IMG/VR virus record: IMGVR_UViG_2698536341_000022
Location: 1-33,070 of that record
Direction: 5' to 3' (one strand)
DNA length: 33,070 nt
Source of the DNA: a virus
Taxonomy: Duplodnaviria; Heunggongvirae; Uroviricota; Caudoviricetes
The notes under the pieces: generated by a model
Told to the model about the DNA's origin: nothing
Seen by the model: the letters and a program-made list of their open reading frames with translations, nothing else
Databases searched by the model: none
Shown: positions 1-32,729 of the stretch, in pieces
Layout of the letters: every line of letters starts with the position of its first letter
How positions within the stretch are numbered: position 1 is the first letter of the stretch
Translations under genes and position numbers: made by a program

Positions 1-1053
1 TTACGGGGTAATGCCAACCGCTGCCGCCACTTTGTCGCCACTTGGCAGCGTTGCCAGAGGATTGAAACGGAGCGCCGTTTCCAGATGATCCGGTGCCAGA
101 TGTGCGTAACGCATAGTCATTTTTATATCGTGGTGTCCGAGAATTTTTTGTAAGGCCAGAATGTTTCCACCCGACATCATGAAGTGCGCCGCAAACGTAT
201 GGCGCAGAACGTGTGTGAGTTGACCGCGAGGGAGTACGATAGACGTTTTTTCCATCACGGATAAAAATTGAAAATAGCAGTCTGTGAAGAAATTGAACCC
301 ATCAAGCGCCATGATCTCTTCGTAAAGCTCTTTACTGATAGGGATGCTTCTGTTTTTCTTCCCCTTCGTTCTGACAAAGGTAATTCGGTATTTGGTCACC
401 TGTGAGCGGGTAAGATTTACGGCTTCACGCCAGCGTGCGCCTGTGCTTAAGCATATCTTAACTACCAGTGCCAGAATTGGGTCCTGACGTTTGCAATCAG
501 CCAGCAATTCAACAATCTGCTCATGGGTAAGCCATGCCATCTCTTTTTCTGCGATGGTGAATTTTCGCATGTTCTCCAGTGGGTTCGGATACGACCATTC
601 GCCCAGACGGGATAGTTCGCTAAAAACACTACTTAGATAGCTTTGCTCCAGGTTAATGGTGACCGGGCTTGCTCCTTTCTTCCATTTCTCGCTGAAGTAG
701 ATCTCGCCTGTCAGGCGTTTATCTCGATAGTGGGCAAACATTTTAGAGGTGAGATCGGTTGCAAGAGGATTGCCCAGAGCGTCAACCATCAACAGCAATT
801 TGTCATAGACATGCTGCCCAGCTGTCAGAGATTTACCATGTAGTTTGAACCATAGCTCAACCACGTCTTTCAGTGTTCGACGATCCACTGATTCACCCAG
901 CCAGGGCTTTGCTTCGGTTTCTTCCATCGTGTGGCGCTCAAAAGCCAGTGCTTCGCCTTTGGTGACGAATTGTTTACGCACACGACGCCCACTTCGTCCG
1001 GCGGGGTAACATTCGCAAAGCCATTTCCCAGTGGTGAGTTTTCGTACTGCCAT
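1..1053 (-). CDS. int: Tyrosine-type site-specific integrase, P2/186 family (350 aa); stop codon at window positions 1-3
   Basis: Track ORF 1..1209(-); N-terminus MAVRKLTTGKWLCECYPAGRSGRRVRKQF matches my recollection of P2/186 integrases, so start taken at ATG 1053 (Met53 of the ORF). C-terminal region HVLRHTFAAHFMMSGG...MRYAHL is typical of tyrosine recombinases. Confidence 0.9.
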   Translation of the reverse strand: MAVRKLTTGKWLCECYPAGRSGRRVRKQFVTKGEALAFERHTMEETEAKPWLGESVDRRTLKDVVELWFKLHGKSLTAGQHVYDKLLLMVDALGNPLATDLTSKMFAHYRDKRLTGEIYFSEKWKKGASPVTINLEQSYLSSVFSELSRLGEWSYPNPLENMRKFTIAEKEMAWLTHEQIVELLADCKRQDPILALVVKICLSTGARWREAVNLTRSQVTKYRITFVRTKGKKNRSIPISKELYEEIMALDGFNFFTDCYFQFLSVMEKTSIVLPRGQLTHVLRHTFAAHFMMSGGNILALQKILGHHDIKMTMRYAHLAPDHLETALRFNPLATLPSGDKVAAAVGITP

Positions 1054-1241
1054 AAAAAATGCCCTCCAGTAGAGAGCATTTTCACTGTATGTATAACCAG
1101 TGTCAATGTATGAAATCCTACGACCATACATCTCACTGAAGCCATAATTAAGTTGGCTATTCTTTTTGCTATGTGAGCATGTAACTTTTGCGGTTAACCT
1201 GCGGCTCATTTTTATTTTAGACGCAGATATAAAAGCAAAAG

Positions 1242-1433
1242 TTATCGTGAGTTTTTAGTACAGATTTTTTTGGATTTACTAATAGTTCCATCATTGCAAA
1301 CGAATTTGCCATCTGAGGTACAGTGAGAAACACCTCCCTTTTTCCCTGAGCAGGGATAATTTCTAGCATAGGTAGTTAGTGGGTTTAATAACAAAGAACA
1401 TGACAAAACCACAAAAAATACCTTACCAAGCAT
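1242..1433 (-). CDS. Small predicted secreted cysteine-containing protein (63 aa), encoded between cI and int
   Basis: Track ORF; strong RBS (GGAGGAAAC) upstream of ATG 1433; N-terminal hydrophobic signal-like segment [14 protein letters not shown] followed by a Cys/Lys/Gly-rich mature part; AT-rich relative to flanking phage genes. Confidence 0.55.
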
Positions 1434-1448
1434 AGTTTCCTCCCGGTA

Positions 1449-2018
1449 CTATTTAACATACTTGACTGTTAAACTTATAATTTTACCAATTATTTCAATG
1501 TCTTCTATCTTGCATTCGAAGGCTCTGTTTCCACCCTCGACGAAGATTCTTCCACCGGGTAAACGAGTAATGTCACGGATAGTTATTTCGCCATCAATAC
1601 TTATTACCCATTTACCATCACGTATATCATCAAATTCTTTATCACAAATAAATTCAGAATTGTTATCTGTGATGACAAAAGGTTTTTTAAACGTAGAGGG
1701 TAGAAATCCCTTATCAAAAATATAAAAACCGTCTTTCTGCAATGCTCCATCAGACAATAAATATTTTTCTACTTCTATAGTATTTGTATTTGCTGATGCT
1801 TGCTTTGAACCATGCCCTGTTGTTAGCCAATTAAGCGAGGTGCCCGTTTCAAGGGCGCACTGGATTACCCAATCTGCTGGAAAAATATCACGCATATAGC
1901 GCGTTGCCATGGTGCTCTTAGAAACACCTAAATGATCACATAGAGCCTGACGGGTACCGAACCCATATGCTTCAACTAAACGTTCTATGGCTTTCTTACC
2001 GCCGCTATTGAAATCCAC
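1449..2018 (-). CDS. cI: Immunity repressor CI (phage 186 type)
   Basis: Track ORF 1449..2105(-); segment RLVEAYGF...CALETGTSLNWLTTG resembles my recollection of the 186 CI N-terminal domain; position between int and apl. Start uncertain: GTG 2018 has a GGAGGA RBS; the maximal ORF starts at GTG 2105 with no RBS. Confidence 0.75.
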   Translation of the reverse strand: MDFNSGGKKAIERLVEAYGFGTRQALCDHLGVSKSTMATRYMRDIFPADWVIQCALETGTSLNWLTTGHGSKQASANTNTIEVEKYLLSDGALQKDGFYIFDKGFLPSTFKKPFVITDNNSEFICDKEFDDIRDGKWVISIDGEITIRDITRLPGGRIFVEGGNRAFECKIEDIEIIGKIISLTVKYVK

Positions 2019-2163
2019 AAGTCCTCCAAAGAAATCCAAAATTCGTTGACAGATTCCAAAAGCGATCTTAAAGTTGAACCAGAAGTGTTCTTTTGGAGCC
2101 TTCACTACTAATCACGACAAACAACGGCTCGCCACAAGCCATATCTAGAAGGAATGTTGCCTT

Positions 2164-2367
2164 ATGACACCTAACATTTCAATTACTCTGAATACACCAC
2201 ATGTCACAATCGAACGTTATAGCGAACTGACTGGCCTTTCTATTGATACGATTAACGACATGTTGGCTGATGGCCGACTACCTCGTCATCGTCTTCGTAA
2301 AGACAAAAAACGTGAAAAGGTAATGATTAACATGGCTGCTCTGACTGTTGATGCTTTGTCTGCTTAA
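2164..2367 (+). CDS. apl: Apl/Cox-like excisionase and lytic-switch regulator (67 aa)
   Basis: Small basic ORF divergent from cI and first gene of the rightward early operon; assignment is by position and size relative to 186 apl / P2 cox. Confidence 0.65.
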
Positions 2368-2431
2368 TAGACGTCTATTTTCGCAATAAGACGCTGAGTT
2401 CGATTTTGCGATAAGTTCGGAGTTGAAAACC

Positions 2432-2941
2432 ATGTTTGATTACCAAGTTTCCAAACATCCACATTTTGATGAAGCCTGTCGTGCATTCACACTGCGCCAC
2501 AATCTGGTGCAACTGGCAGAACGTGCGGGCATGAATGTGCAGATTCTGCGGAACAAGCTGAACCCAGCTCAACCTCATTTATTAACCGCACCAGAAATCT
2601 GGCTGCTTACCGATCTGACTGAAGATTCAACGTTGGTAGATGGTTTTCTGGCACAGATTCATTGTCTGCCATGTGTACCGATTAATGAGGTAGCAAAAGA
2701 GAAACTGCCGCATTACGTCATGAGCGCAACTGCAGAGATCGGGCGTGTTGCAGCAGGTGCGGTATCTGGTGATGTAAAAACTAGTGCCGGTCGTCGTGAT
2801 GCTATCAGCAGCATTAACTCTGTAACACGACTGATGGCGCTGGCTGCTGTTTCATTGCAGGCCCGTTTACAGGCTAATCCTGCGATGGCGAGTGCAGTTG
2901 ATACCGTGACTGGCCTCGGTGCTTCATTCGGTTTGCTGTGA
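2432..2941 (+). CDS. cII: CII lysogeny-establishment activator (phage 186 type, 169 aa)
   Basis: Protein from ATG 2432 ([19 protein letters not shown]...[25 protein letters not shown]...GASFGLL) closely matches my recollection of 186 CII; RBS GGAG upstream. The track ORF begins 9 nt earlier at a TTG. Confidence 0.85.
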
Positions 2942-2948
2942 GGTGCTT

Positions 2949-3245
2949 ATGCTGACGAAAGAACCATCATTTGCATCGCTGCTGGTAAAACAAAGCCCGG
3001 CAATGCACTACGGTCACGGCTGGATCACGGGTGAGGATGGAAAACGCTGGCATCCATGTCATTCACAAGATGAATTGCTGTCTGAATTGACCACGAGGAA
3101 ACGGAGAAAGTCCAAATGTATGCGGCAGAAAGTGAAGTGGTTTATCAGTTTCGTTACAGAGGGGAGAGTTATTCAGTACCTGAAGATGATTTGCTCTGTT
3201 GCTATCCGTCATTGTCGGGCGATGGCAGTTACTTTTTCACGTTAA
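2949..3245 (+). CDS. Hypothetical early protein (99 aa); overlaps next ORF in another frame
   Basis: Track ORF 2919..3245; ATG 2949 with GAGGTG RBS directly after the cII stop. The C-terminal third reads like the alternate frame of the next ORF, so the true extent is uncertain. Confidence 0.35.
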   Translation: MLTKEPSFASLLVKQSPAMHYGHGWITGEDGKRWHPCHSQDELLSELTTRKRRKSKCMRQKVKWFISFVTEGRVIQYLKMICSVAIRHCRAMAVTFSR

Positions 3246-4232: not shown

Positions 4233-5086
4233 GCACCATCCTGAAATGGGCGGGAAATAAAACCGCCATTATGCCAGAACTGAAAAAATACCTTCCTGCT
4301 GGCCCGCGACTGGTTGAACCTTTCGCGGGTTCCTGTGCTGTGATGATGGAAACGGATTATCCCAGCTATCTGGTTGCGGATATTAATCCTGATTTAATCA
4401 ACCTCTATAAAAAGGTTTCCGCTGATTGTGAATCGTTTATATCTCGCGCCAGAGTTTTATTTGAGATCGCAAACAGGGAGGTGGCTTATTACAACATAAG
4501 GCAGGAGTTTAACTGCTCAACTGAAATTACTGATTTCATGAAAGCGGTATATTTCCTGTATCTTAATCGTCACGGTTACCGTGGTTTATGTCGCTATAAC
4601 AAGAGCGGGCATTTCAACATCCCCTACGGTAATTATAAAAATCCGTATTTCCCTGAAAAAGAACTTCGCACATTTGCAGAAAAAGCCCAGCGAGCAACGT
4701 TTATCTGCGCCAGCTTTGATGAAACGCTGGCGATGTTGAAGGCGGGAGATGTGGTGTATTGCGATCCGCCGTATGACGGTACGTTTTCCGGCTATCACAC
4801 TGATGGTTTCACTGAAGATGACCAGTATCACCTGGCATCCGTTCTTGAACATCGGTCATCAGAAGGACATCCAGTCATTGTTTCTAACAGTGACACATCC
4901 CTGATCCGTTCGCTGTATCGCAATTTTACTCACCACTATATCAAGGTAAAACGCAGCATCGGTGTGGCAGCTGGCGAGGGTAAATCAGCAACAGAAATCA
5001 TTGCTGTTTCCGGGCCGCGCTGCTGGATGGGATTTGATTATTCGCGTGGCGTGGATAGTTCTGCCGTGTACGGAGTACGTGCATGA
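4229..5086 (+). CDS. dam: DNA adenine methyltransferase, Dam-like (285 aa)
   Basis: ATG 4229 with GGAGG RBS; motifs LKWAGNK, EPFAGS and the catalytic DPPY tetrad are hallmarks of N6-adenine (GATC-type) methylases; ATGA overlaps with flanking genes. Confidence 0.85.
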
Positions 5087-7497
5087 GTCATGCCGATATG
5101 AACAACTGCTGCGGCTTTAACGAGGCTGCTGCAGCATTCTCATGGAACAGCCCGAAAAAGGCCATTAACCCTTATCTGGACCCGGCGGAAGTTGCGCCGG
5201 TTTCTACGCTTTCAAACCTGATCACTCTGTACGCTGCCGATAACGAGCAGGAACAGTTGCGCCGCGAGGCACTGAGTGATCAGGTCTGGGAGCGTTATTT
5301 CTTTAATGAATCACGTGATCCTGTCCAGCGCGAAATGGAGCAGGATAAGCTCATTAGCCGGGCAAAGCTGGCGCATGAGCAGCAGCGTTTTAATTCAGAC
5401 ATGGTCATTCTGGCGGACGTCAACGCCCAGCCTTCCCATATCAGCAAGCCGCTGATGCAACGTATTGAATACTTCAGCAGCCTGGGCAAGCCAAAGGCTT
5501 ATTCCCGCTATTTACGTGAGACGATTAAGCCATGTCTGGAACGACTGGAGCATGTACGCGACAGTCAGCTATCTGCATCTTTTCGCTTTATGGCAAGCCA
5601 TGAAGGGCTGGACGGCCTGCTGATCCTGCCTGAAATGAGTCAGGATCAGGTGAAACGCCTGTCCACCCTGGTAGCTGCGCATATGAGTATGTGCCTTGAT
5701 GCAGCTTGTGGTGATTTGTATGCCACCGATGACGTTAAGCCAGAAGAAATCCGCAAGACATGGGAAAAGGTGGCAGCGGAAACCCTGCGTCTGGATGTCA
5801 TCCCACCTGCGTTTGAGCAACTCCGTCGGAAAAGAAACCGCCGTAAACCCGTGCCCTATGAACTCATTCCGGGTTCGTTGGCGCGTATGTTGTGTGCCGA
5901 CTGGTGGTATCGGAAATTATGGAAGATGCGTTGTGAATGGCGGGAAGAGCAGTTGCGTGCTGTCTGCCTGGTCAGCAAAAAAGCATCCCCCTATGTCAGC
6001 TATGAAGCCGTGATGCATAAACGTGAGCAGCGCCGTAAGTCGCTGGAGTTTTTCCGTTCTCATGAACTGGTGAACGAAGACGGCGACACGCTGGATATGG
6101 AAGATGTGGTAAACGCCAGCAGCAGCAACCCGGCGCATCGCCGCAATGAGATGATGGCCTGTGTTAAAGGTCTGGAGCTTATCGCGGAAATGCGCAGTGA
6201 CTGCGCCGTTTTCTACACTATCACCTGTCCGTCGCGTTTCCATTCCACGCTCAATAACGGCAGACCCAACCCGACCTGGACAAACTCGACGGTAAGACAA
6301 AGCAGCGACTATCTGGTCGGCATGTTTGCTGCATTTCGTAAGGCGATGCACAAAGCCGGATTGCGCTGGTATGGCGTGCGGGTGGCTGAGCCGCATCATG
6401 ACGGTACAGTTCACTGGCACCTGTTGTGTTTTATGCGCAAAAAAGACCGCCGCGCCATCACTGCATTACTGCGTAAGTTTGCCATCCGTGAAGACCGCGA
6501 GGAGCTGGGCAATAACACTGGGCCGCGCTTTAAGTCTGAGTTGATTAACCCGCGCAAAGGAACGCCGACAAGCTACATCGCGAAATATATCAGTAAGAAC
6601 ATTGACGGGCGTGGTCTGGCTGGCGAGATCAGCAAGGAAACGGGTAAATCTCTGCGTGATAACGCTGAATACGTTAATGTCTGGGCGTCTCTGCATCGTG
6701 TTCAGCAATTCCGCTTCTTTGGCATTCCGGGGCGTCAGGCTTACCGTGAACTGCGATTGCTGGCTGGTCAGGCGGCAAGGCAACAGGGTGACAAAAAAGC
6801 AGGTGCTCCGGTACTGGATAACCCGCGCCTTGATGCCATTCTGGCTGCTGCTGATGCTGGCTGTTTTGCCACCTACATTATGAAGCAGGGCGGCGTGTTG
6901 GTTCCCCGCAAATATCACTTGATCAGAACCGCTTATGAAATCAACGAAGAGCCGACAGCCTATGGCGATCACGGCATTCGTATTTATGGCATCTGGTCAC
7001 CCATTGCAGAGGGCAAGATCTGCACTCATGCAGTGAAGTGGAAAATGGTTCGTAAGGCCGTTGACGTTCAGGAGGCGGCAGCCGACCAGGGCGCTTGCGC
7101 CCCTTGGACTCGTGGCAATAACTGTCCCCTTGCTGAAAATTTGTACCAACAAGGGAAAGACAAATCAGCTGATGGAGATACCAGAACTGATATCACCCGT
7201 ATGGATGACAAGGAGTTGCACGATTACCTGCACAGTATGAGCAAAAAAGAGCGCCGGGAACTGGCAGCAAGGTTACGCCTGGTGAAACCGAAACGGCGTA
7301 AAGACTACAAACAGCGAATTACAGATCATCAGCGACAGCAGCTCGTGTATGAACTGAAGTCCAGGGGATTTGATGGCAGCGAGAAAGAGGTCGATTTACT
7401 CCTTCGCGGCGGCAGTATTCCGTCAGGAGCAGGCCTGCGTATCTTCTATCGGAACCAGCGTTTGCAGGAAGATGATAAGTGGCGGAACCTGTATTAA
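5083..7497 (+). CDS. A: Replication initiation protein A (rolling-circle nicking endonuclease, P2 gpA / 186 RepA family, 804 aa)
   Basis: Size, position after the early operon and the HxH-containing segment (VHWHLLCF) fit P2 A-type replication proteins. Confidence 0.85.
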
Positions 7498-7589: not shown

Positions 7590-7609
7590 TACTGTAAATA
7601 TAAACAGTG
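7590..7609 (+). promoter_or_regulatory. LexA operator (SOS box) upstream of the tum/dinI-like operon
   Basis: tACTGTaaatataaACAGtg is a perfect CTGT-N8-ACAG match with an AT-rich spacer, 41 bp upstream of ATG 7650; an adjacent half-site ATACAGTA lies at 7617-7624. Confidence 0.8.
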
Positions 7610-7649
7610 GTTATGTATACAGTATCGCTTTGGTGTCATAGGAGGAAAG

Positions 7650-7838
7650 ATGCAGGACTATTTTTTGGAGTCTTTGAAGCTCCAGCGCATTGATTTTTTT
7701 CTTAAGCTTGTAGCGGCTAGTGAGTGTAGTGATGAAGAGAAGGGGCTGGCTCTGCAGTGGGTTTCTGAATTGACTGATGAACTCATGGCAAAAATCAGAA
7801 CCCACGAATACAACCGCTCAATGGATGTCATCAGTTGA
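7650..7838 (+). CDS. Small SOS-operon protein (62 aa), possible Tum-like antirepressor N-terminal module
   Basis: GGAGG RBS, ATG start, directly downstream of the LexA box and upstream of the DinI-like gene; function inferred from position only. Confidence 0.5.
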   Translation: MQDYFLESLKLQRIDFFLKLVAASECSDEEKGLALQWVSELTDELMAKIRTHEYNRSMDVIS

Positions 7839-7848
7839 GGTGACTTTT

Positions 7849-8082
7849 ATGCGCATTGAAATAATGATCGATAAAGAGCAGAAGATTAGCCAGTCTACCC
7901 TGGACGCCCTTGAATCCGAGCTTTACCGCAATCTGCGCCCCCTGTATCCCAAAACGGTAATTCGTATCCGCAAAGGTAGCTCTAACGGTGTGGAACTGAC
8001 CGGACTGCAACTGGATGAAGAAAGAAAACAAGTGATGAAAATTATGCAGAAAGTGTGGGAAGACGACAGCTGGCTGCATTAA
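7849..8082 (+). CDS. DinI-family protein (77 aa), likely the C-terminal-like half of a split 186 Tum-type antirepressor
   Basis: MRIEIMIDKEQ...LDALESEL...KQVMKIMQKVWEDDSW aligns along its length with my recollection of E. coli DinI (MRIEVTIAK...IDALAGEL...KQRISEILQETWESADDW); GAGG RBS before ATG 7849. Confidence 0.8.
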   Translation: MRIEIMIDKEQKISQSTLDALESELYRNLRPLYPKTVIRIRKGSSNGVELTGLQLDEERKQVMKIMQKVWEDDSWLH

Positions 8083-8193
8083 GAAACGTTGCCTCCAGGA
8101 GGATTCATTCTGATGGGGGCTAGTTTGGGCAACGAGTGAAACGAGGCGTAAGGTGGGCGGGCATTTTGATAAGTGATCGTCCGCTTTGTGCTA

Positions 8194-8213
8194 GAAGCGG
8201 TCGTTACCGCTTC
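8194..8213. terminator. Stem-loop between convergent dinI-like and herA genes (possible bidirectional terminator)
   Basis: Perfect 8-bp inverted repeat GAAGCGGT / ACCGCTTC with a 4-nt loop; flanking T-run is weak. Confidence 0.4.
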
Positions 8214-8226
8214 AGCACTTTGTTAA

Positions 8227-10086
8227 TTAGTGAGGGCTGGTTATTACGTAGTCGCTCTGGTCATCCTCTCCCAGCCTCTCAGGTATTAAATCGTTGAAGG
8301 AAATAGTATTACTCTTAGGTTTTTCTTCAATTGGAAGTTCAGCTACCCTTAATTTGAGCGGCATGGGGCAGACGATACCACTAAAAATACAGGTTCCTGT
8401 AGATAGCGTTGGAATCGACTCTTCAGTCAGTCGATCTATATATGATACTGATTTTTCAATTGCGTACAGATCATTCTGATTAATAAGGCGATGAATAAAA
8501 TAATTGTGTGCTTGGGATATGATTGTCGACGATATATCATTAGGGCGTTGACTGGAAATTGTGATAAAAACTCCAAATTTTCTCCCCTCCTTTATGATTT
8601 CCTCAAAAGTTTCCAGACGATAATCTCTCCAACTTTCCGTTTCCCGAAAAGAAGTATTAGACAAAATATTGTGGGCTTCATCTATAATGATGTGCAGTGT
8701 AGATTTCTCTGTAGACATTTTCTTCATATTGTAAGCCCACTTGGCTATCAAAAGAGGAAGCGTTTTTTTCATGGTTATATTAACCATATTTAGATTCACA
8801 ACCGTGAAATTATGTTCACCCCAAAAGTCAGACTGTCCGGAAGTATCAAATATTTTGGCTATATCTTTACGGTTAGCACTCATTCTATTTATAACTGGTG
8901 AAATATGTTCAGGGTTAGACTTGTTAGATAAATATTCCTGTATTAACTGTAAGTACATAAAGTCCAACAGTTCTTCAATCATATCAGTTTTAAATAAAAA
9001 ATTGCTTGCAAGACTGAATAGATAGGAGCGCTCAGTATCAGCTTCTGTATTGAAAATACTACCACCCCTCAATTTCCATTTATATGCAGTTGAATGATAC
9101 TCAAGATCAGATATAAGTTCTGGGTCATCTTTGAAAATTGGGCTAAGAAACTGATTTATAGTATCGCATTTGGGTTTGTCGCTACTAAAGAGATTTTGTC
9201 TGACTTTTTTCTTCAGGATATTGCGCATAAACTCAAGAGGATTATCAGCAGTCATCACTTTCTTGCGAAACTCAAGAACTCTCTTCAGGAAAGGTTTCTG
9301 TGTTTTGTCTGTTGCATCGGTTAGAACTGAGAGCATATCATGCTCAAGTAGAACCTCTCTGGGTAGAGGAAGTTTGTCACCATTTGCATGGTGCGTGTTG
9401 AGATTATAAACCGTCTTCTCGTCAGTAATACAGCGTGGGGCAGTATATTCTCCATTAAAGTCGAATAGAATAAATTTGCATCTTTCACTAAAGTGGTTGC
9501 CGAGAATATGTTTAACTTGGGCAATACCTGCTTTGTATAGCGCGGCTAGGGTATTTGACTTTCCGCTGCCTGTATTACCGAAAATGGCAATGTGGGAATT
9601 AATAAGACCATTGATTGGTAGTGCAATTTCAATATCTTCAAGATCTGTACGAGTAAACCTCATTACAGTTTCGTCTGCATTAGCTATCTGATGAACCGTT
9701 TGTATCATCTCTTCAGTTACCACGAAGACTTCATTGCCGATGAGAGGTAGTTCACGCGAACCACCAATGAAGCAACCAGTACGATCAATGTAACCCGTAA
9801 GAGTAGAGGTCAGGTATCGCCGATATCGCCAGGCATCACTGCCGCTCCCAGCGAGATGTTTTTCCTCAATGATTCGTTCCGCTTCAACCTTGCCGATCAG
9901 GCTCATGAAACCTTTTTTGATCTCAATGAAGCTACCCACTGATACATTTCTTAGAACTTTTCCCTGATAAAACAAGTCACTGAGATTTTTGTTTTTATCG
10001 ACCAAAATTGTCACAGCGCGTCCAGAAACCTCACAGACTTCGCCTATACGGAGCACCGCTTCCTCTTCAGTAAAATGCCTGCTCAT
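8227..10086 (-). CDS. herA: HerA-like P-loop ATPase/helicase of the SIR2-HerA anti-phage system (619 aa)
   Basis: Walker A GNTGSGKSN and Walker B IIIDEAHN in a DUF87/HerA-FtsK-like arrangement; ATG 10086 overlaps the SIR2 stop (ATGA) with a GGGAGG RBS. The track ORF extends to GTG 10107. Confidence 0.85.
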   Translation of the reverse strand: MSRHFTEEEAVLRIGEVCEVSGRAVTILVDKNKNLSDLFYQGKVLRNVSVGSFIEIKKGFMSLIGKVEAERIIEEKHLAGSGSDAWRYRRYLTSTLTGYIDRTGCFIGGSRELPLIGNEVFVVTEEMIQTVHQIANADETVMRFTRTDLEDIEIALPINGLINSHIAIFGNTGSGKSNTLAALYKAGIAQVKHILGNHFSERCKFILFDFNGEYTAPRCITDEKTVYNLNTHHANGDKLPLPREVLLEHDMLSVLTDATDKTQKPFLKRVLEFRKKVMTADNPLEFMRNILKKKVRQNLFSSDKPKCDTINQFLSPIFKDDPELISDLEYHSTAYKWKLRGGSIFNTEADTERSYLFSLASNFLFKTDMIEELLDFMYLQLIQEYLSNKSNPEHISPVINRMSANRKDIAKIFDTSGQSDFWGEHNFTVVNLNMVNITMKKTLPLLIAKWAYNMKKMSTEKSTLHIIIDEAHNILSNTSFRETESWRDYRLETFEEIIKEGRKFGVFITISSQRPNDISSTIISQAHNYFIHRLINQNDLYAIEKSVSYIDRLTEESIPTLSTGTCIFSGIVCPMPLKLRVAELPIEEKPKSNTISFNDLIPERLGEDDQSDYVITSPH

Positions 10087-11126
10087 CTCGAGCCTCCCAG
10101 ATAGCACGTGATAATGTTATTCATTACCGGAAAATCAACATTTCTTCCCGGCCGATAAATAATCTCTACGTTTGAGTAATCCCGAAATTTCTCCATAAAG
10201 CCGTTAACACTGGCCTCATCGAAAGCAAAGATCAGTAGCTTCAGGGTGGCGTTGCGCAGGGCTTTTTTAGTTATCGTTTCAATGTGCTCATCAGCAAACG
10301 AGAACCCAAAGACAATTAGTAAAGTTGCTTCTTTATCAAGCTCGTTGGAATAGGTTCTCAGTAAATCATAATAAACGTTCTGTAGTAGAGTCTCTTTAAA
10401 CTTCTCCTTACGTGGAAGAATAAGTGCATGAGCAAGTACCCATCCTTTCATTTCGGCTAGGGTGGGAAAGTCAAGCGGCTTAATATCTGCAATACGATAA
10501 ATGATTTTCCCTTTAGAATGCTGCCAAGAGAGCGAACCATGAAGTTTTATAAGGTTAACAGTAGGAAGCTCAACTTTATAATTATACAGATTTCCGGTTG
10601 CACTTACAGAATGATTAAAGCTACCCGCATCAAATTCCGCATCTCCCAAAATACTTGCTCTTCTATTGAATCCATCATTAAAAAGAATATTGTTATTACG
10701 TGTGGCAGCTTCTTCGATGAATAAATCATAATTAGTTGTAAAAACGTTAATACGCCTCGGAAGTAGGCCAGTTCGGCGGCGGGTCAGTATCTTTTCCAGT
10801 GAAGACATAAATGCATCATAATTTGCACGGGTACATTCCAAATCGGTGATCACCTGAGGTGCGAAGGGGGTGCCGTAGCCGCGCTTCAACATGCATTCAT
10901 GAGGTAGCCAAACATCTGACAAAAAGTCAGCTGCCATCCTTAAGTATTCATCTTCCTGTTCATCATTAATAAGCTGCTGAAGATCCGTTTCGATTGTCCC
11001 CAGTACTTTAATCGCTGGGAGGGATGCACCTGATCCGATGAGAAAGTTAATGTTAGCTGACTGAAATATCCGCTCTAAGTAGTCTCGGTCACTATCGTTA
11101 CCGTAGTATGCGCGCTTGACTGCCAT
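10083..11126 (-). CDS. SIR2-like NAD-consuming domain protein of the SIR2-HerA anti-phage system (347 aa)
   Basis: Motifs FLIGSGAS, TTNYD and KLHGS are hallmarks of defence-type SIR2 domains; ATG 11126 with AAGGA RBS (track ORF starts at TTG 11141); directly upstream of and overlapping herA. Confidence 0.85.
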   Translation of the reverse strand: MAVKRAYYGNDSDRDYLERIFQSANINFLIGSGASLPAIKVLGTIETDLQQLINDEQEDEYLRMAADFLSDVWLPHECMLKRGYGTPFAPQVITDLECTRANYDAFMSSLEKILTRRRTGLLPRRINVFTTNYDLFIEEAATRNNNILFNDGFNRRASILGDAEFDAGSFNHSVSATGNLYNYKVELPTVNLIKLHGSLSWQHSKGKIIYRIADIKPLDFPTLAEMKGWVLAHALILPRKEKFKETLLQNVYYDLLRTYSNELDKEATLLIVFGFSFADEHIETITKKALRNATLKLLIFAFDEASVNGFMEKFRDYSNVEIIYRPGRNVDFPVMNNIITCYLGGSR

Positions 11127-11550
11127 CTTATCCTTCCACAAAACATTGGATTAGTCTGTAATTTATTTAATCTTAACGCCGAGCTCAATACTTTAACATC
11201 ACTTCTTCTGGCGATTGCTATGAGCCCTTCTTGATAAAAAGTTCGATCGGGAAACTGATCCTTTATGCCACAAGTTTTCTAGCTATCCTCAAAAAATTGG
11301 TGTTAAAACTGTGCCAACAAAGTTGCAAGGTTCGCTTCTCGCTCACAGCGAACTTTCATCTTTGTAAACCCGTATGATTCGCTTTTCAGCAGTCATTCAG
11401 ATACGGATTTACGCTTCCCTTGGCAGCGCATGACTATGACGCATGAGATCGCATGATCGTTTGAGGATCGTTTTTGCTGAAGTCAGCCAGAACTGGCGTG
11501 CTTTTGCTTATGTCATGCAGGTGCATGAAAACCACTACATAAAGCGGGCA

Positions 11551-11569
11551 GGCGTGGCGGGGATACGAG
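11551..11569. other. Candidate cos (cohesive end) site, 186/P2-like
   Basis: GGCGTGGCGGGGA matches the first 13 nt of the 19-nt cohesive end as I recall it for 186 (GGCGTGGCGGGGAAAGCAT); the last 6 nt diverge. It lies in a 580-bp non-coding stretch. Recalled from memory, not searched. Confidence 0.35.
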
Positions 11570-11721
11570 CGCGCGCTAAGTCATATAAGAGTTATATATT
11601 GATTTGATTGCTGGACATGCATACAGTATCGCTCTATCATCTAATAAATCTTAGAGTATTTGACAATGTTTGGATAAAATGGAACCTAACTTATTCATAA
11701 TCCGCTAAACAGGGATGTCAG

Positions 11722-12636
11722 ATGCCATACCAATTGGTAGAGCTTAGCCCCGTAGCTAACGATCTTGAACAGTTAGGAACCAAAGAGAAGTTTTGGTTCT
11801 ATTTCTCCGATGACACTGTAAATTTGCAGTTGTTTAAGTACTCTAGGCCAGGTACTGGCGAGCATTGGTCTGAAAAGTGTGCTGCTGAGTTATGTCATTT
11901 GCTTAACATTCCACATGCTAGCTATGATTTGGCGCGATACAATGGTCGATTCGGTGTGGTGACTCAGAATATCATTCCATCTGGTTTCCGGATGGTAATG
12001 GGAAATGAAGTGCTTCACAGTTCGACATTCGATTATCCTGGGTCTTTACAAGCCGGGGAAAAGCCGGTAAGGGTCAGAGAACACACTGTCACAAGGGTAT
12101 TGGGTTGTTTAGATAGGGAATCTATCAAGCCTCCTCCGAGTGTATATGATCTAACCGGGCTAAATGCAGCAGATGTATTTTGTGGATATTTGATGCTCGA
12201 TGCACTTGTGAGTAATCAAGATCGCCATCATGAAAATTGGGCGATCATGCTTAACAATGAAACTGGTGAGCAGTTTTTGTGTCCAACATACGATCATGCC
12301 GCTAGTTTAGGAAGGGAGATGTTAGATGATGAGCGTAACGAACGGCTTAATACTAAAGATAAAAATCGACAAATCCCATGTTTTGTAAGAAAAGCTCGCT
12401 CTGAGCTATTCAAAGCAAAAACTGATAAAAAGCCCTTGCTGACCGTTGAAGCATTTCAACATGCAGTTGAAGGGAGAGTTGCCGCTCGCGACCATTGGTT
12501 AGGTAAGTTGAGCGTTTTAACAGAAGATTCCATTACAGATGTGTTTAACCAAGTGCCTTCATCGTGTATATCCGACAGTGCACGTAGATTTGCAACGTTA
12601 ATGGTAATGGAAAATCGCAGAAGGTTACTAGAATGA
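11722..12636 (+). CDS. HipA/HipT-like Ser/Thr kinase-fold protein (304 aa); first gene of a candidate two-gene defence/toxin module
   Basis: P-loop-like LGTKEKFWF near the N-terminus, catalytic-loop-like SNQDRHHENW and a downstream PTYDH motif, in the order seen in HipA_C kinases; lacks the long HipA N-domain (HipT-like length). Stop overlaps the next start (ATGA). Confidence 0.6.
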   Translation: MPYQLVELSPVANDLEQLGTKEKFWFYFSDDTVNLQLFKYSRPGTGEHWSEKCAAELCHLLNIPHASYDLARYNGRFGVVTQNIIPSGFRMVMGNEVLHSSTFDYPGSLQAGEKPVRVREHTVTRVLGCLDRESIKPPPSVYDLTGLNAADVFCGYLMLDALVSNQDRHHENWAIMLNNETGEQFLCPTYDHAASLGREMLDDERNERLNTKDKNRQIPCFVRKARSELFKAKTDKKPLLTVEAFQHAVEGRVAARDHWLGKLSVLTEDSITDVFNQVPSSCISDSARRFATLMVMENRRRLLE

Positions 12637-13373
12637 CTAATACAAACTCCGTTTACGTCGCATGGCAGGCACCAGATACCAGAGACTGGCATGTTGTTGG
12701 TAACTTGCAAGAGCGCAAATCGGGGTATGTTTTCAGGTATACCAAAGGTGCTCTCAAATCTACTAAATTTACAAAGTTTAGCGGCATGAGTGATGTTCGT
12801 GAAACTTATGTTTCGGAAGAATTGTTTCCTCTTTTTAAAAATCGCCTTTTATCACCGAGACGTCCAGAGTATCCGAGTTTCATTAAATGGCTTGGATTTG
12901 AAGAAGATAAGGTAAATCCTATCGATATTCTTGCTCGCTCGGGAGGCTTACGAAGCACTGATCAGCTGCAGATTTTCAAAAAAATTGATGTTGATTCTGA
13001 TGGTAACTTTGAGCATTTTTTCTTCTTACATGGACTTGGTTACTTAAATAGCTTAGCTAATGCTCGTGTATCTGAATTGAAACCGGGGCAAATTTTGCGT
13101 CTTTGCTTGGATCTTCAAAATGAATACGATGGGGATGCTGTTGTCGTTCGTGCAGATAAACCAGCTGAAATCGTTGGTTACTGCCCTAGGTATTTAAGTA
13201 ATGATATCAAGAAGATGTTATTGGATGATCCAAAATCAATCACTTTAACGGTCGAAAAGATTAGCGATGATGCTCCTCATAACTATCGGTTATTATGTAA
13301 ATTATCAGGAGTACTAAGCCAAGCCTGTCAATCGACGCTGATTCCTCAGGATGAGTTTGAACCTATTGAGTAA
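12633..13373 (+). CDS. Protein with HipA-N/HipS-like N-terminal domain and C-terminal HIRAN-like domain (246 aa)
   Basis: N-terminal LFPLFKNRLLSPRRPEY resembles the HipA N-domain motif (F-x-N-L-L-P-E-G-x-x-R); C-terminal LKPGQILRLCLDLQNEYDGDAVVVRADKPAEIVGYCPRYLSNDIKKML matches the HIRAN signature (NPYD-x-NAI-x-V ... G-Y-x-P). Translationally coupled to the kinase gene. Confidence 0.55.
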   Translation: MTNTNSVYVAWQAPDTRDWHVVGNLQERKSGYVFRYTKGALKSTKFTKFSGMSDVRETYVSEELFPLFKNRLLSPRRPEYPSFIKWLGFEEDKVNPIDILARSGGLRSTDQLQIFKKIDVDSDGNFEHFFFLHGLGYLNSLANARVSELKPGQILRLCLDLQNEYDGDAVVVRADKPAEIVGYCPRYLSNDIKKMLLDDPKSITLTVEKISDDAPHNYRLLCKLSGVLSQACQSTLIPQDEFEPIE

Positions 13374-13379
13374 ATGAAG

Positions 13380-13403
13380 AAAAGCCACCAAACGGTGGCT
13401 TTT
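13380..13403. terminator. Bidirectional rho-independent terminator between the kinase-HIRAN operon and portal gene Q
   Basis: Inverted repeat AAAAGCCACC / GGTGGCTTTT with a short loop, flanked by T-runs on both strands, in the 34-bp gap between convergent stops. Confidence 0.7.
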
Positions 13404-13407
13404 CTTA

Positions 13408-14445
13408 TTATGGGACTATATCTAGCGAGTAGGTATTAAACTGTATCGCCTCCTTGCCAAGCCAATCATTCATCTCCTGTAATCGCTTTTGTAGTGGCAT
13501 TAGCTCATTTCGGACGAATACACGGCTTGCCTTCTCCACATCCCCAAACCCCCCAACATTATTCGGCATAATCCCCATCATTTGCGGCGGTACACGATGC
13601 GCCGCCATCATGTCGTCCCGGCTTACGTTCTTGATGTTCAGAAACTCATCCTTTGCCGCCACTTCTGACAGCGGGATGATCTGAAGCCCGTCCTTTTTGC
13701 CGTTAGGCGAGTACATAAACAGGTTGCGGAAGTTGCCCGGACCTTTGGCGCTTTTCATCGCGTTGCGGAGGTTGTTCACATCCTCCTGGTTCTGAGCGGC
13801 ATCGGTCATGTACATTATGAATCCTGCATGGCTGCCATTAATATAATATTTGCGTCGGAACAGCGTGGCGGACTCGTTGAGCAGGGCTGACGGAATGGCA
13901 GAAAGATAGCCGGGCAGGCCGTAGATCTCCTGGTTGATATCGGGTTCCATCAGATGAAAGATGCTGCCTTTCGTGAACTGATACGGCTGGGTTGTCATAC
14001 CGTATTGCACAAACCAGTAGGTATCCAGGTCTAACCCGCGTCGGGTGTATTTTGCCAGCGCAGGCTCAAGGGCGATAATTTCACCGAACCGGTTCGTGCG
14101 TTTCTCCAGGTAGGCGTTACCAAATACCAGATAGTCCTGCACAAAACGTGAAAAAGCCTGCTGGCTGAGCAGCGGGTGAGGGATGTAGGTGCTGGTCAGA
14201 ATGTTGCATTTCACCGCAATCGGTGAGCTATGATGCACGGCGGCGCGGAAGGTTCGCGCCAGTCCGTCGAAACTCACTGGTGGCTCATACCAGCGGTCCA
14301 TCTGTACGCATTCCACATAGTCCAGTAATTCGCGGCGGTCCAGAACAGGAACGGGATCGCCGAAGCTGAATGCTTCGGCTGAAGTCTGGCTTTTATGCTG
14401 GATCTGATTCATCGCCGCTGCGCGGTTTTTCTTACGCTTTCCCAT
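13408..14445 (-). CDS. Q: Portal protein (P2 gpQ family)
   Basis: Position downstream of P on the same strand, size of about 345 aa, P2 synteny; ATG 14445 overlaps the P stop. Confidence 0.85.
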   Translation of the reverse strand: MGKRKKNRAAAMNQIQHKSQTSAEAFSFGDPVPVLDRRELLDYVECVQMDRWYEPPVSFDGLARTFRAAVHHSSPIAVKCNILTSTYIPHPLLSQQAFSRFVQDYLVFGNAYLEKRTNRFGEIIALEPALAKYTRRGLDLDTYWFVQYGMTTQPYQFTKGSIFHLMEPDINQEIYGLPGYLSAIPSALLNESATLFRRKYYINGSHAGFIMYMTDAAQNQEDVNNLRNAMKSAKGPGNFRNLFMYSPNGKKDGLQIIPLSEVAAKDEFLNIKNVSRDDMMAAHRVPPQMMGIMPNNVGGFGDVEKASRVFVRNELMPLQKRLQEMNDWLGKEAIQFNTYSLDIVP

Positions 14446-16211
14446 CAAAAAATCTCCACAATATTACTGGTATTGGCGGACTCGCCTTGCAGTGGTTCGT
14501 TAAACAGTGCGTGCATTGTTGCCCAGGCCAGATCGGCGTGGCTGGCTTCTTCGCTGCGGCTGGCTTCATAGGTCGGGCGGTTGCCACTGGCGGTGGTGGC
14601 GCGACGGATTGCCATAAATGACTGCGCTATGTCGGTGTGTCCGGCGTCAAACTCCAGACGGCGGTGGCTGATAATGTCGTAGGCCTTGAGTACCAGAGCG
14701 TTTTTAACGTTGGGGTTGTAGACAAACTCCCGGACGGCAGGAAAGAACGCTTTCACGTTCTCATAAACCCCGTGACCGACGCCTGTCGAGTCAATGCCGA
14801 TATAGGTCACGTTGTACTGCTCGGTCAGTTTTTTGATGGCGTCAGCCTGGGCGCGGAAGTCCATTCCGCGCCACTGGTGACGCTCAAGAATGCGGAACTT
14901 ACCGCCCGGCACGGCTGGCGGTGCCACCACCACGCACCCGGCGCTGTCGCCGTTTTGCGTACCTTTTGCCGGGTCATAACCGATCCACACTTCGCGCCAG
15001 CCAAACGGGCGCAGCGCCAGTGCATGAAAGTCGGTCCAGACTTCCCAGCTGTCCACCATGCACCCCTGCAGCTCGCTGAGCGGGAACACGGACGCGAGAT
15101 CGTCCACGAACTCACACATCAGCAGGTTCTGGTATTCATCCGGGCTGTATTCCATGCGTAACTGGTCGAGGTCGAACAAGTTGCAGCCGCCGCGCACCGC
15201 ATCTTCCACAGTGACTATCTGGCGGTACTGCCCGTCTGCGCACAGCAGGCCGGGGGCCAGATTGCTGTGGGACAGGTCGATGTCCACCTTGTCGGCTTTG
15301 TTGCGTCCACGGTTGAACAGCGCACCGGACCAGAACGGATAAGCACTGTGGGTCAGGCTGGATGGCGTGGAAAAATAGGTTTGTCGCCATTTTTTGTGAA
15401 TAGCCATACCGGAAGCCACTTTGCGCAGCTCCTGGAATTTCGGTATCCAGAAATATTCATCCAGATACAGGTTACCGTGATAACTCTGGGCTGTGCGGGC
15501 ATTGGTGCCGAGGAAGTAAAGCGTGGCCCCGTTAGGAAGCACCATCGGATCGCCTTTCAGCTCCACCTCCACTTCTTTGGCGAAGTCGATGATGTACTGC
15601 TTAAAGACGTGGGCCTGTGCCTTACTGGCGGAAAGGAAAATCTGGTTACGTCCGGTCAGCAGGGCGTCAATCAGGGCTTCACGGGCAAAGTAAAAGGTCG
15701 CGCCGATCTGGCGTGACTTCAGCAGGTTGCGGATGCGGTTGGTTTTTCCGGCTTCCCACCAGTGGCGCTGGTAGTTGAACATGGAGGAGTGGAAGATTTC
15801 TTCCAGCTTCTCAATTTGTTCATCGGTGAAAACGTTCTTTTCCGGCTGACGGCGCGGGCCTTTGTTGCGGTTGGCGACGTTAGGGTTTAAGTCGGCTTCG
15901 TTACCGCCATTGTTAAACTTGCCGATGCGCGCGTGGCGCTCCGACTGGCGCGCCAGCAGGTCAATTTCTTTGAAATCTTTCCCTTCTTTGTGCTCCTTCA
16001 TAATGAGCTGGCAGTAGCGTGCGGCGGTGGTGAGCTGCATCTGATCCAGCGGCCCATAGTCACCCCACTTGTCGCGTTTTTTCCAGCTGTGAACGGTTGC
16101 AACTTTCTCGCCCAGCATTTCAGCAATGCGGGCTACGCGGTATCCCTGAAAGTACAGCAGCATGGCCTGCCGACGGGGATCGAGATCTGCGGGTGTCAGT
16201 GTGGTGTTCAT
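14445..16211 (-). CDS. P: Terminase large (ATPase) subunit (P2 gpP family, 588 aa)
   Basis: Size and position divergent from the O-N-M-L operon, as in P2. Confidence 0.85.
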   Translation of the reverse strand: MNTTLTPADLDPRRQAMLLYFQGYRVARIAEMLGEKVATVHSWKKRDKWGDYGPLDQMQLTTAARYCQLIMKEHKEGKDFKEIDLLARQSERHARIGKFNNGGNEADLNPNVANRNKGPRRQPEKNVFTDEQIEKLEEIFHSSMFNYQRHWWEAGKTNRIRNLLKSRQIGATFYFAREALIDALLTGRNQIFLSASKAQAHVFKQYIIDFAKEVEVELKGDPMVLPNGATLYFLGTNARTAQSYHGNLYLDEYFWIPKFQELRKVASGMAIHKKWRQTYFSTPSSLTHSAYPFWSGALFNRGRNKADKVDIDLSHSNLAPGLLCADGQYRQIVTVEDAVRGGCNLFDLDQLRMEYSPDEYQNLLMCEFVDDLASVFPLSELQGCMVDSWEVWTDFHALALRPFGWREVWIGYDPAKGTQNGDSAGCVVVAPPAVPGGKFRILERHQWRGMDFRAQADAIKKLTEQYNVTYIGIDSTGVGHGVYENVKAFFPAVREFVYNPNVKNALVLKAYDIISHRRLEFDAGHTDIAQSFMAIRRATTASGNRPTYEASRSEEASHADLAWATMHALFNEPLQGESANTSNIVEIF

Positions 16212-24636: not shown

Positions 24637-26138
24637 GCACAAAATTTTATACCCTGCTGACGGATATTGGCGCGGCGAAACTTGCCAGCGCCGCCGCGCT
24701 CGGTGTGCCGCTAAAAATTACCCATATGGCGGTGGGCGATGGCGGTGGAGTATTGCCAACGCCGGACGCAAAGCAGACGGCACTGGTAAATGAGAAACGC
24801 CGGGCTGCGCTGAATATGCTTTATATCGACCCGCAGAACAGCAGCCAGATTATTGCCGAACAGGTGATCCCTGAAAACGAGGGCGGTTGGTGGATACGTG
24901 AAGTGGGCTTGTTTGATGAGTCCGGGGCATTGATTGCCGTGGGCAACTGCCCGGAAAGCTATAAGCCGCAACTGGCTGAAGGTAGCGGGCGCACTCAGAC
25001 CGTGCGCATGGTGCTGATTACCAGCAGCACGGACAATATCACCCTGAAAATCGACCCTGCTGTAGTGCTGGCAACCCGCAAGTATGTGGATGACAAGGCA
25101 CTGGAGCTGAAGGTGTACGCGGATGATCAGATGGCAAAACATCTTGCCGCACCGGACCCGCATTCACAGTACGCGCCAAAAGCCAGCCCGACATTTACCG
25201 GAACCCCCAAAGCGCCAACGCCAGCGGCGGGGAATAATACCACGCAGGTTGCGACCACTGCGTTTGTACAGGCGGCACTGACGGCCCTTATTAATGGTGC
25301 GCCAGCCACGCTGGACACGCTGAAAGAAATAGCCGCAGCCATTAACAATGATCCGAATTTCAGTACCACCATTAACAATGCGCTGGCACTAAAAGCACCG
25401 TTGTCGAGTCCGGCACTCACCGGAACGCCAACAGCCCCCACGGCGGCGCAGTCGGTCAACAATACACAGATTGCCACTACGGCTTTTGTGAAATCGGCGA
25501 TTGCAGGAATGGTGGGTTCTGCACCTGCTGCACTGGATACACTGAACGAACTGGCGGCGGCACTGGGGAATGATCCGAACTTTGCCACGACAATGCTTAA
25601 TGCGCTGGCAGGTAAACAACCGCTGGACAATACGCTTACCAATTTGAGTGGAAAGGATGTAGCTGGTCTTCTCACATACCTTGGTTTGGGAGAAGGTGCT
25701 CCAGCTATTGGCGTTCCGTTCTTCTGGCCGTCCGCTGCAATGCCAAATACTGTAATCGACAGCTGGTCCAGTATGGTGTTTTTGAAGTTCAACGGCGCGA
25801 AATTCTCTGCCACTGATTATCCTGTGCTGGCGAAAGTATTTCCTTCGCTGGTATTACCTGAAGCCCGCGGTGATTTCATTCGTATCTGGGATGACGGGCG
25901 AGGTGCAGACGGTGGTCGCGAATTATTAAGCTGGCAGGAAGCTACAAACTTTTCTCAGTTTGCCGGGAATATAGGCGGAGGTGCGGGACACGCAATTAAC
26001 TTTCATGATGGCATCGCCGGAAATCAGCCAGGATTTTCACGATTTAATTTCACCAGTAACTCTGTGGGTGATGGTGTGAATTTTGTTGCTGTCAGACCGC
26101 GAAATATTGCATTTAACTTTCTGGTGAGGGCTAAATAA
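24633..26138 (+). CDS. H: Tail fibre protein (P2 gpH family) with a Mu/P1 S-type variable C-terminal domain (501 aa)
   Basis: N-terminal MSTKFYTLLTDIGAAKLA... is typical of P2-like H; repeated TTAFV motifs; C-terminal IRIWDDGRGADGGRE-type motif as in invertible-segment tail fibres. Confidence 0.85.
   Translation: MSTKFYTLLTDIGAAKLASAAALGVPLKITHMAVGDGGGVLPTPDAKQTALVNEKRRAALNMLYIDPQNSSQIIAEQVIPENEGGWWIREVGLFDESGALIAVGNCPESYKPQLAEGSGRTQTVRMVLITSSTDNITLKIDPAVVLATRKYVDDKALELKVYADDQMAKHLAAPDPHSQYAPKASPTFTGTPKAPTPAAGNNTTQVATTAFVQAALTALINGAPATLDTLKEIAAAINNDPNFSTTINNALALKAPLSSPALTGTPTAPTAAQSVNNTQIATTAFVKSAIAGMVGSAPAALDTLNELAAALGNDPNFATTMLNALAGKQPLDNTLTNLSGKDVAGLLTYLGLGEGAPAIGVPFFWPSAAMPNTVIDSWSSMVFLKFNGAKFSATDYPVLAKVFPSLVLPEARGDFIRIWDDGRGADGGRELLSWQEATNFSQFAGNIGGGAGHAINFHDGIAGNQPGFSRFNFTSNSVGDGVNFVAVRPRNIAFNFLVRAK
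25669..25694. other. Gin/Hin-type crossover-like site inside H at the constant/variable junction
   Basis: TTCTCACATACC-TT-GGTTTGGGAGAA: two 12-bp half-sites in inverted orientation (10 of 12 positions complementary) around a 2-bp core; identity with the second copy at 32742 begins exactly at the core. Confidence 0.55.
25681..26009 (+). repeat. 329-bp segment of H (3' coding region) duplicated 100% in direct orientation at 32742-33070
   Basis: Compared base by base in the sequence; the second copy runs to the window edge, so the repeat may be longer. Confidence 0.95.
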
Positions 26139-26224
26139 TGAAACCTGTTTTTGATGAAAATGGGCTGGCATGATGCTGAATGCCGGAGTTTTGTTGCTTT
26201 TGTTAAGCAGTTCAGAGCTGAAAT

Positions 26225-32674: not shown

Positions 32675-32729
32675 GATCATCCCCCTGAATAAAAACCGGA
32701 GATGATGCCAGTTAGCTGGTACCTCTGCA

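Follow-up and report, generated by a model that had tools for sequence, protein, structure and literature searches.

We describe here a pair of genes carried by a tailed virus (Caudoviricetes) that is recorded in IMG/VR as IMGVR_UViG_2698536341_000022; the whole stretch of this record, positions 1 to 33,070, was analyzed and is referred to below as the window. Both genes are on the minus strand. The upstream gene, at 10083-11126 (ATG at 11126, stop at 10083-10085), encodes a SIR2 effector of 347 residues, and the downstream gene, at 8227-10086 (ATG at 10086, stop at 8227-8229), encodes a HerA-like ATPase of 619 residues. The same two genes were called by RefSeq in a locus of Escherichia coli 89-3156 that is 99.6-99.8% identical. 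The two reading frames share the four nucleotides ATGA, in which the TGA stop of SIR2 is merged with the ATG of HerA, and the Shine-Dalgarno-like sequence GGGAGG is found a few bases upstream of this overlap. Together these two features make up the usual signature of translational coupling, and the synthesis of the two proteins is thus predicted to be coupled.

An earlier note on this DNA had described the pair as a SIR2-domain protein followed by an overlapping HerA-like ATPase, and had recognized in it the architecture of the SIR2-HerA anti-phage systems. All of the motifs named there can be located in the translations: FLIGSGAS at residues 28-35 (Rossmann), TTNYD at 130-134 and KLHGS at 194-198 in SIR2, and the Walker A motif GNTGSGKSN at 170-178 (with Lys176) and the Walker B motif IIIDEAHN at 466-473 (with Asp469/Glu470) in HerA. 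The searches it had proposed, with PADLOC and with the SIR2_2 and DUF87/HerA profiles, gave strong matches for both proteins. SIR2 matches Pfam SIR2_2 with an expect (E) value of 1.4e-12 (48.3 bits against a gathering cut-off of 24.5), and HerA matches Pfam DUF87, the “Helicase HerA central domain”, at 3.7e-19 (70.1 bits against 23.2). The PADLOC models are matched over essentially their full length, PDLC04080 by SIR2 at 6.3e-211 (profile positions 1-347 of 347) and PDLC04097 by HerA at 6.7e-267 (positions 3-616 of 618), while older PADLOC models for the same system score weaker (PDLC02186 at 1.7e-28 and PDLC02185 at 3.4e-42). These full-length matches, and a SIR2 fold predicted to be nearest to that in the SIR2-HerA complexes, bear out the architecture that was proposed.

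Among proteins with a solved structure, the best match of SIR2 is SaSir2 (8yhx_G, 3.5e-21), followed by the Nezha Sir2 (8j4u_A, 1.5e-11); the HerA protein, searched against the PDB, finds the HerA chains of anti-phage complexes at 1e-18 to 3e-28. The SIR2 protein is also short, with 347 residues against 381-428 for the solved SIR2s. A search of a large protein collection gave 1954 relatives of SIR2 at E <= 1e-5, and the closest of these, about 80 proteins, are nearly all 338-361 residues long. Their named sources include Serratia, Citrobacter, Photorhabdus, Hafnia, Pantoea and Enterobacter, as well as Erwinia, Salmonella, Proteus, Yersinia, Klebsiella and Xenorhabdus. This short-SIR2 lineage is widespread in the Enterobacterales.

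Residues N132 (in TTNYD) and H196 (in KLHGS) of SIR2 align with N226 and H287 of SaSir2, which form the catalytic dyad of that enzyme; H287 was found by mutation to be essential for the NADase activity (PMC11514289). Both residues, and also G31, G33 and S35, are invariant in 41 homologs that cover 40-100% identity. Asn132 and His196 can be taken as the putative catalytic dyad. An AlphaFold2 model of SIR2 was built on the homolog alignment (predicted local distance difference test, pLDDT, 84.8; predicted template modeling score, pTM, 0.86) and compared by Foldseek with the PDB. The first 38 ranks were all taken by SIR2 subunits of the SIR2-HerA complexes of Staphylococcus aureus, E. coli and Paenibacillus, with E values from 3.5e-16 to 5e-10, template modeling (TM) scores of about 0.55-0.65 and 17-21% identity. 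Other SIR2-containing structures, those of KomBC, ThsA, DSR2 and SPARSA, appeared in the same search only from an E value of about 1e-6. Because the top ranks all belong to SIR2-HerA complexes, the protein is specifically a SIR2 of the HerA type, and its sequence places it in a divergent lineage outside Nezha.

The genome that carries the pair is a P2/186-like E. coli prophage, with the gene order of gene A, a LexA-boxed DinI module, SIR2-HerA, the cohesive-end site (cos), a hipIN-like kinase/HIRAN pair and the portal gene Q. The hotspot to be discussed below is anchored on the left by replication gene A, on the plus strand at 5083-7497 (Pfam Phage_GPA, 1e-125). Gene A is followed on the same strand by the SOS module of the backbone (7592-8082), which is made up of a near-consensus LexA box, CTGTAAATATAAACAG, at 7592-7607, a 62-residue open reading frame at 7650-7838 and a DinI-like gene of 77 residues at 7849-8082. 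This module parallels the LexA-controlled p95/tum operon annotated in the 186 record. The tum of 186 is a single gene that is read from nested starts, and its products are annotated as DinI-like RecA-filament-binding proteins, while the window has the 62-residue frame and a separate DinI-like gene. The right anchor of the hotspot is portal gene Q, on the minus strand at 13408-14448 (Pfam Phage_portal, 4.7e-19; also annotated by RefSeq in the near-identical locus). No RNA family turned up when the whole window was scanned with Rfam.

The cos site was placed at 11551-11569 on the plus strand, GGCGTGGCGGGGATACGAG, by alignment to the ends annotated for 186 and P2. Positions 11538-11576 of the window read CATAAAGCGGGCA / GGCGTGGCGGGGATACGAG / CGCGCGC, and the circularized junction of 186, in whose record cos is annotated, reads CATAAAGTGGGCA / GGCGTGGCGGGGAAAGCAT / TGCGCGC. 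The site is thus 186-like; it has five mismatches to the cos of P2, and a search of the window with the P2 cos 19-mer, allowing up to 3 mismatches, gave no match. It lies within a conserved block at 11425-11584 that is kept in 85 phage records. With the SOS module on one side and cos on the other, SIR2-HerA is read leftward, from cos in the direction of gene A. The old-tin genes of P2 have this location and orientation too, and their mRNA begins about 150 nt from cosR. With gene A, the LexA/DinI module and a 186-like cos all found, the position between the SOS module and a cos-like site, corresponding to that of P2 tin/old, is as the earlier note had it.

The base composition of the pair sets it apart from its surroundings. 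The guanine-plus-cytosine (GC) content is 40.0% in the SIR2-HerA module, compared with 52.7% in gene A and 56.2% in the structural genes, in line with the remark that the module is more AT-rich than the backbone. The distribution was surveyed by a megablast of window positions 8100-11700 against 5426 complete E. coli genomes. Matches to the backbone flanks were found in 1279 of these genomes, whereas at least 80% of the query is present in just 16; a 75%-identical copy occurs in another two, and one 75%-identical copy of the pair sits among chromosomal metabolic genes. Undisrupted copies at 99.7-99.9% identity are present in at least 13 genomes. The pair is absent from P2, 186, Klebsiella phage 4LV2017 and Escherichia phage vB_EcoM-813R9. 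The last two have a backbone that is about 96-97% identical to the window, and they carry other cargo, a retron St85 system in 4LV2017 and a Hypoth_Ymh protein in vB_EcoM-813R9. In vB_EcoM-813R9 the DinI gene lies 68 nt from the cos block, which means that the slot between gene A and cos is empty; what is missing there corresponds to 8093-11424 of the window. The comparison of related prophages at this locus, which had been suggested as a check, thus turned up other cargo or none. Because the flanks match 1279 genomes and only 16 of these carry most of the pair, SIR2-HerA is variable cargo and not a core phage function.

The pair also travels outside of P2-like prophages. A stretch that is 91% identical to 8187-11357 of the window is found in a non-P2 chromosomal island of E. 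coli 873.10, near ypjA and together with a restriction endonuclease and an IS3 element. This portable module takes in about 230 nt upstream of SIR2, which presumably hold a promoter of its own. Between the DinI-like and HerA genes, which converge here, there is a perfect 8-bp hairpin at 8194-8213, GAAGCGGT-CGTT-ACCGCTTC. It sits just within the module, a few bases from the left edge (8187); there is no clear U-tract on either strand, and the hairpin may be a shared terminator or a remnant of the junction. More distant copies were found in Klebsiella (62% identity), on a plasmid-like contig with a Rep3 replicase and IS1, and in Steroidobacter (44% identity), where a nearby integrase and relaxase suggest an integrative mobilizable element. 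In both, SIR2 is followed by a DUF87 gene of 602-620 residues whose start overlaps the end of SIR2. The SIR2-then-DUF87 pairing with overlapping ends is thus seen in E. coli islands, Klebsiella and Steroidobacter, over 44-91% identity.

We consider it very probable that these genes are an intact two-gene SIR2-HerA anti-phage system, which a P2/186-like E. coli prophage carries as lysogenic-conversion cargo in the variable stretch that separates gene A from cos, with the position and orientation of P2 old-tin. This reading draws directly on the full-length membership of both proteins in their families, the coupled arrangement, the conserved motifs, the pairing that is kept down to 44% identity, the AT-richness, the variability of the locus and the presence of the pair on other mobile elements. 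How the system may work has to be drawn from its relatives, the E. coli Nezha, S. aureus, Paenibacillus and E. coli type III systems. SIR2-HerA systems respond to infection by depleting nicotinamide adenine dinucleotide (NAD+), and the phenotype is one of abortive infection (Garb et al.). Their HerA forms a hexamer and their SIR2 a dodecamer (a tetradecamer in Paenibacillus), assembly activates the NADase, and nuclease, ATPase and helicase activities have been reported in some of the systems (PMC11514289; PMC11472057). ATP bound to HerA inhibits the NADase (PMC11514289). In E. coli type III, the nickase of HerA is triggered by phage single-stranded DNA-binding protein (T7 Gp2.5) and by Gp5.9; the DNA ends that derive from the nicks then stimulate the ATPase, which relieves the ATP checkpoint on the NADase (PMC13434337).

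By analogy with these systems, the prophage would express the pair in the lysogen from the promoter of the module, a HerA hexamer would dock onto a SIR2 dodecamer, and cellular ATP on HerA would hold the NADase off. When another phage infects, the NADase of SIR2 would be set free, and with it, possibly, ATPase activity and DNA nicking or nuclease activity; the cue is likely to be a phage protein, an exposed DNA end or a drop in ATP. The collapse of NAD+ would then arrest the cell before the invader matures, and both the population of lysogens and the resident prophage would be protected. It is the general output, depletion of NAD+ leading to growth arrest, that is likely to carry over from the relatives.

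There are several points that weigh against this assignment. The SIR2 of the present subtype shares no more than about 18-20% identity with any SIR2 of solved structure, and neither protein reaches the equivalog cut-off of the corresponding NCBIfam family: SIR2 scores 99.8 bits against 500 for SIR2_antiphage (NF042942), and HerA 137.5 bits against 800 for HerA_antiphage (NF042943). The pair is, by these scores, homologous to the NCBIfam anti-phage equivalog families but lies outside of them. RefSeq gives the two proteins only the generic names “SIR2 family protein” and “ATP-binding protein”, which is consistent with scores below the cut-offs, and the subtype is invisible to annotation that is built on NCBIfam equivalogs, so that defense-aware tools are needed to see it. 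A consensus scan upstream of SIR2 found no promoter that reaches its threshold, with overall counts no better than those of shuffled sequences; a weak TTGAGC-17-TAAATT upstream of the SIR2 ATG was spotted by eye, and a promoter role for it is a guess only. When representatives of eight E. coli Sir2-HerA clusters were tested, robust activity was seen only for Nezha and types I-III (Zhang et al. 2026, PMC13434337). The trigger and the gating, by analogy, are not to be transferred with confidence, as the characterized subtypes differ in helicase/nuclease or nickase activities and in oligomeric details.

On the other side of cos there is a second cargo, which fills the slot between cos and Q. It is a hipIN-type pair of 1.65 kb on the plus strand (11722-13373), matched by the PADLOC candidate system PDC-M03. 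Its first gene, at 11722-12636, encodes a HipA-like kinase of 304 residues (PDC-M03A, 2e-122), for which Pfam HipA_C stays below its cut-off (20.7 bits against 30.5); the second, at 12633-13373, encodes a HIRAN-domain protein of 246 residues (PDC-M03B, 3.4e-93; Pfam HIRAN 1.1e-13, 51.3 bits against 24.7). The architecture is that of hipIN as described by Gerdes et al. 2021, and it is from this description that we assume a HipS-like N-terminal domain in the HIRAN protein. The hipIN-type pair is listed as system 20, with 150 occurrences, in Table S5B of Rousset et al. (PMC9122126). A search of the literature found no experimental validation of the HipA-like/HIRAN pair as a defense system. The only consensus-like promoter upstream of this pair, TGGACA-17-TATCAT (11612-11640), is overlapped by a LexA-like CTG-N10-CAG motif, CTGGACATGCATACAG, at 11611-11626. 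About 0.15 such motifs are expected in the stretch by chance, and the evidence is weak; if the motif is real, the hipIN-type cargo would be under SOS control.

In P2 and 186, cos and Q are separated by only about 170-190 bp; the same interval holds the retron St85 of 4LV2017 and the Hypoth_Ymh gene of vB_EcoM-813R9. SIR2-HerA and the hipIN-type pair occur together in three E. coli genomes (H26-H28). Of ten other near-identical copies of SIR2-HerA, all except one (H31) stop matching at 11575-11576, some 6-7 nt beyond the cos 19-mer; the match of H31 runs about 110 nt further, to a locally repeated tetranucleotide. In the one copy that was examined beyond this breakpoint (H29), there is a gene of retron Ec67. 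The hipIN pair, for its part, is also found with other partners, e.g., with DarT and Macro domains. This pattern of matches and breaks argues that the hotspot consists of two slots around cos, A-to-cos and cos-to-Q, which assort independently, and it suggests that the conserved cos block serves as a recombination anchor. A wider proposal, which we put forward tentatively and at somewhat less than even chance, is that the short-SIR2 lineage is an uncharacterized subtype with its own trigger and gating and, at the same time, that the two slots reassort, with the cos block or the cos-cut ends shuffling defense cargo among P2-like phages. Treating the hotspot as two slots would refine censuses of cargo and models of how P2-like phages exchange defense genes.

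The alternative to be taken most seriously keeps the SIR2-HerA system but supposes that its wiring is unlike that of the Nezha-type model. The HerA nickase could be released by a trigger and followed by an ATP checkpoint before the NADase, as in type III; a different phage trigger could be used; or the loss of NAD+ could be secondary to DNA damage. The divergence of the subtype speaks for this, with an identity of about 19% to the solved SIR2s, scores that stay below the NCBIfam equivalog cut-offs and the short SIR2 noted above. So does the precedent of the E. coli subtypes, which are 13-22% identical and differ in phage spectrum and in enzymatic repertoire, and whose HerA partners are incompatible (PMC13434337). 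However, the SIR2 dyad and the HerA Walker motifs are strictly conserved, so that both outputs, NADase and ATPase, have probably been kept, and no feature was found that points to a specific alternative activity. Altered wiring is given somewhat less than an even chance. It is far less probable that the genes are an inactive remnant or are silent in the lysogen. The missing consensus promoter would fit with this, and so would the report by Zhang et al. of robust activity for only Nezha and types I-III among the eight clusters; yet both frames are full length against their family profiles and all of the catalytic motifs are intact, the 99.7-99.9% copies in E. coli are undisrupted, and the preservation of a pair coupled by 4 nt from the Enterobacterales to Steroidobacter implies purifying selection.

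Two other explanations were rejected. It could be imagined that SIR2-HerA and the hipIN-like pair form one composite four-gene system, since they are neighbors in the same hotspot, are both AT-rich and occur together in the three genomes mentioned. The two pairs, however, are transcribed divergently with cos between them, homology stops 7 nt past cos in at least eight of the ten near-identical copies (with retron Ec67 beyond it in H29), SIR2-HerA is found alone on other elements, and the hipIN pair has its other partners and an entry of its own in Rousset Table S5B. The independent assortment of the two pairs makes a composite system very improbable. The idea that the pair performs a core or housekeeping task for the phage, e.g., in DNA-end processing or in packaging by a HerA translocase, has even less to commend it, and we give it next to no probability. 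It may be brought up in its favor that HerA relatives act in archaeal DNA-end resection, that there are weak NCBIfam matches to those families, and that the pair adjoins cos. It fails on distribution, given that the pair is absent from about 99% of the E. coli genomes with the same flanks and from the four related phages named above, while the same module is found outside prophages and its base composition is foreign to the backbone.

The right end of the window has a peculiarity of its own. Against the near-identical prophage of E. coli 89-3156, segment 26171-32756 runs in the opposite direction; within it are the genes for gpU, the tape measure, E, the tube and the sheath, and for a serine recombinase/invertase of 190 residues (32108-32680). 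The 329 nt at 25681-26009, which hold the C-terminus of the tail fiber, are repeated exactly, with 0 mismatches and in direct orientation, at 32742-33070, the end of the window. They also hold the sequence ...TTGGTTTGGGAGAA, which by its resemblance we take to be a candidate crossover site of the invertase. Just before the junction at 26170/26171 there is a candidate truncated start, 32 nt long, of the tail-fiber assembly gene G (ATGAAACC...), unconfirmed by homology; gpD and ogr are not in the window. Inverted repeats that would explain the inversion of the tail module at the right end were not found, and the arrangement reflects either a rearrangement linked to the invertase or a fault of assembly, a break or a chimera, at the repeat. 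The tape-measure gene (26707-29784, minus strand) is one intact open reading frame of 1025 residues in the window, while the corresponding region of 89-3156 (10650-13726 of locus L011) is annotated as two genes, a hypothetical protein and a tape measure protein; the copy in 89-3156 may be disrupted.

There is a good deal of earlier work on the location of the pair. The cos-proximal interval between gpA and gpQ was described as a defense hotspot by Rousset et al. 2022, with 18,150 loci and 1,650 arrangements, and “SIR2 + HerA” (SIR2, DUF87; Gao et al., 2020) is system 14 of their Table S5B, with 188 occurrences (PMC9122126). Their Table S5A lists the exact SIR2 accession WP_028985770, with HerA WP_029364119 and various partner genes (PMC9122126); WP_028985770 is the accession annotated for SIR2 in the near-identical loci. 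The gpA-gpQ (TO) hotspot was also described by Vassallo et al. 2022 and Odegrip et al. 2006 (PMC9519451). The earlier note had made its point of the placement of the pair as prophage cargo. While the cargo status is supported by the census (16 of 1279 flank-sharing genomes), the fresh interest is not, because Rousset et al. already list the hotspot, SIR2+HerA and this SIR2 accession; system and location, down to this SIR2 protein, are published. The HerA of system 14, on the other hand, matches the Nezha chain 8j4u_M at 1.2e-202, by which the common P2-borne SIR2-HerA is of the Nezha type and not of the present subtype. Beyond the literature there are thus two small additions, the non-Nezha subtype and the two independently assorting slots that flank cos. 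The prophage is otherwise a clean textbook example of one that pays its way, via an abortive-infection system in a known P2 defense hotspot.

Compared with the known systems, the pair has the order of SIR2+HerA as defined by Gao et al. 2020 and in PADLOC, a SIR2_2 effector and then a DUF87/HerA ATPase, with full-length PADLOC matches; it differs in falling into a sub-cluster apart from the older models PDLC02186/PDLC02185 and from the NCBIfam equivalogs. It shares the fold class of Nezha (PDB 8J4U, 8SU9, 8SUB; Foldseek E about 1e-14, TM 0.6-0.65). Its identity to Nezha is only about 18-20%, however, with phmmer E values of 1.5e-11 for SIR2 and 2.4e-20 for HerA, and the SIR2 of Nezha has 415 residues against 347 here; by these comparisons, the pair is not of the Nezha type. 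SaSir2-HerA (PDB 8YHX/8YHO) is the best solved match both in sequence (3.5e-21) and by Foldseek (3.5e-16), although SaSir2, with 428 residues, has extra N-terminal elements and is about 20% identical to the SIR2 of the window. Types I-III of E. coli (PMC13434337) are non-Nezha Sir2-HerA lineages from the same species, and the pair of the window presumably falls into one of the eight clusters covered by Zhang et al. Residue numbering, which is all that was compared, makes type III unlikely: type III has Sir2 N238, HerA K188 and the nickase residue D218, while N132 (an offset of about 106) and K176 are found here.

The nearest parallel in position is offered by P2 itself, although the backbone is 186-like and, unlike P2 proper, has a CI/CII region and the LexA-controlled DinI module. 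The old-tin genes lie in the same slot between gene A and cos, with the same leftward orientation and with their upstream end near cos, and they have the same presumed role of excluding other phages. By annotation only, they belong to families other than SIR2 and HerA, Old being annotated as an AAA-family ATPase/exonuclease and Tin being without a family annotation.

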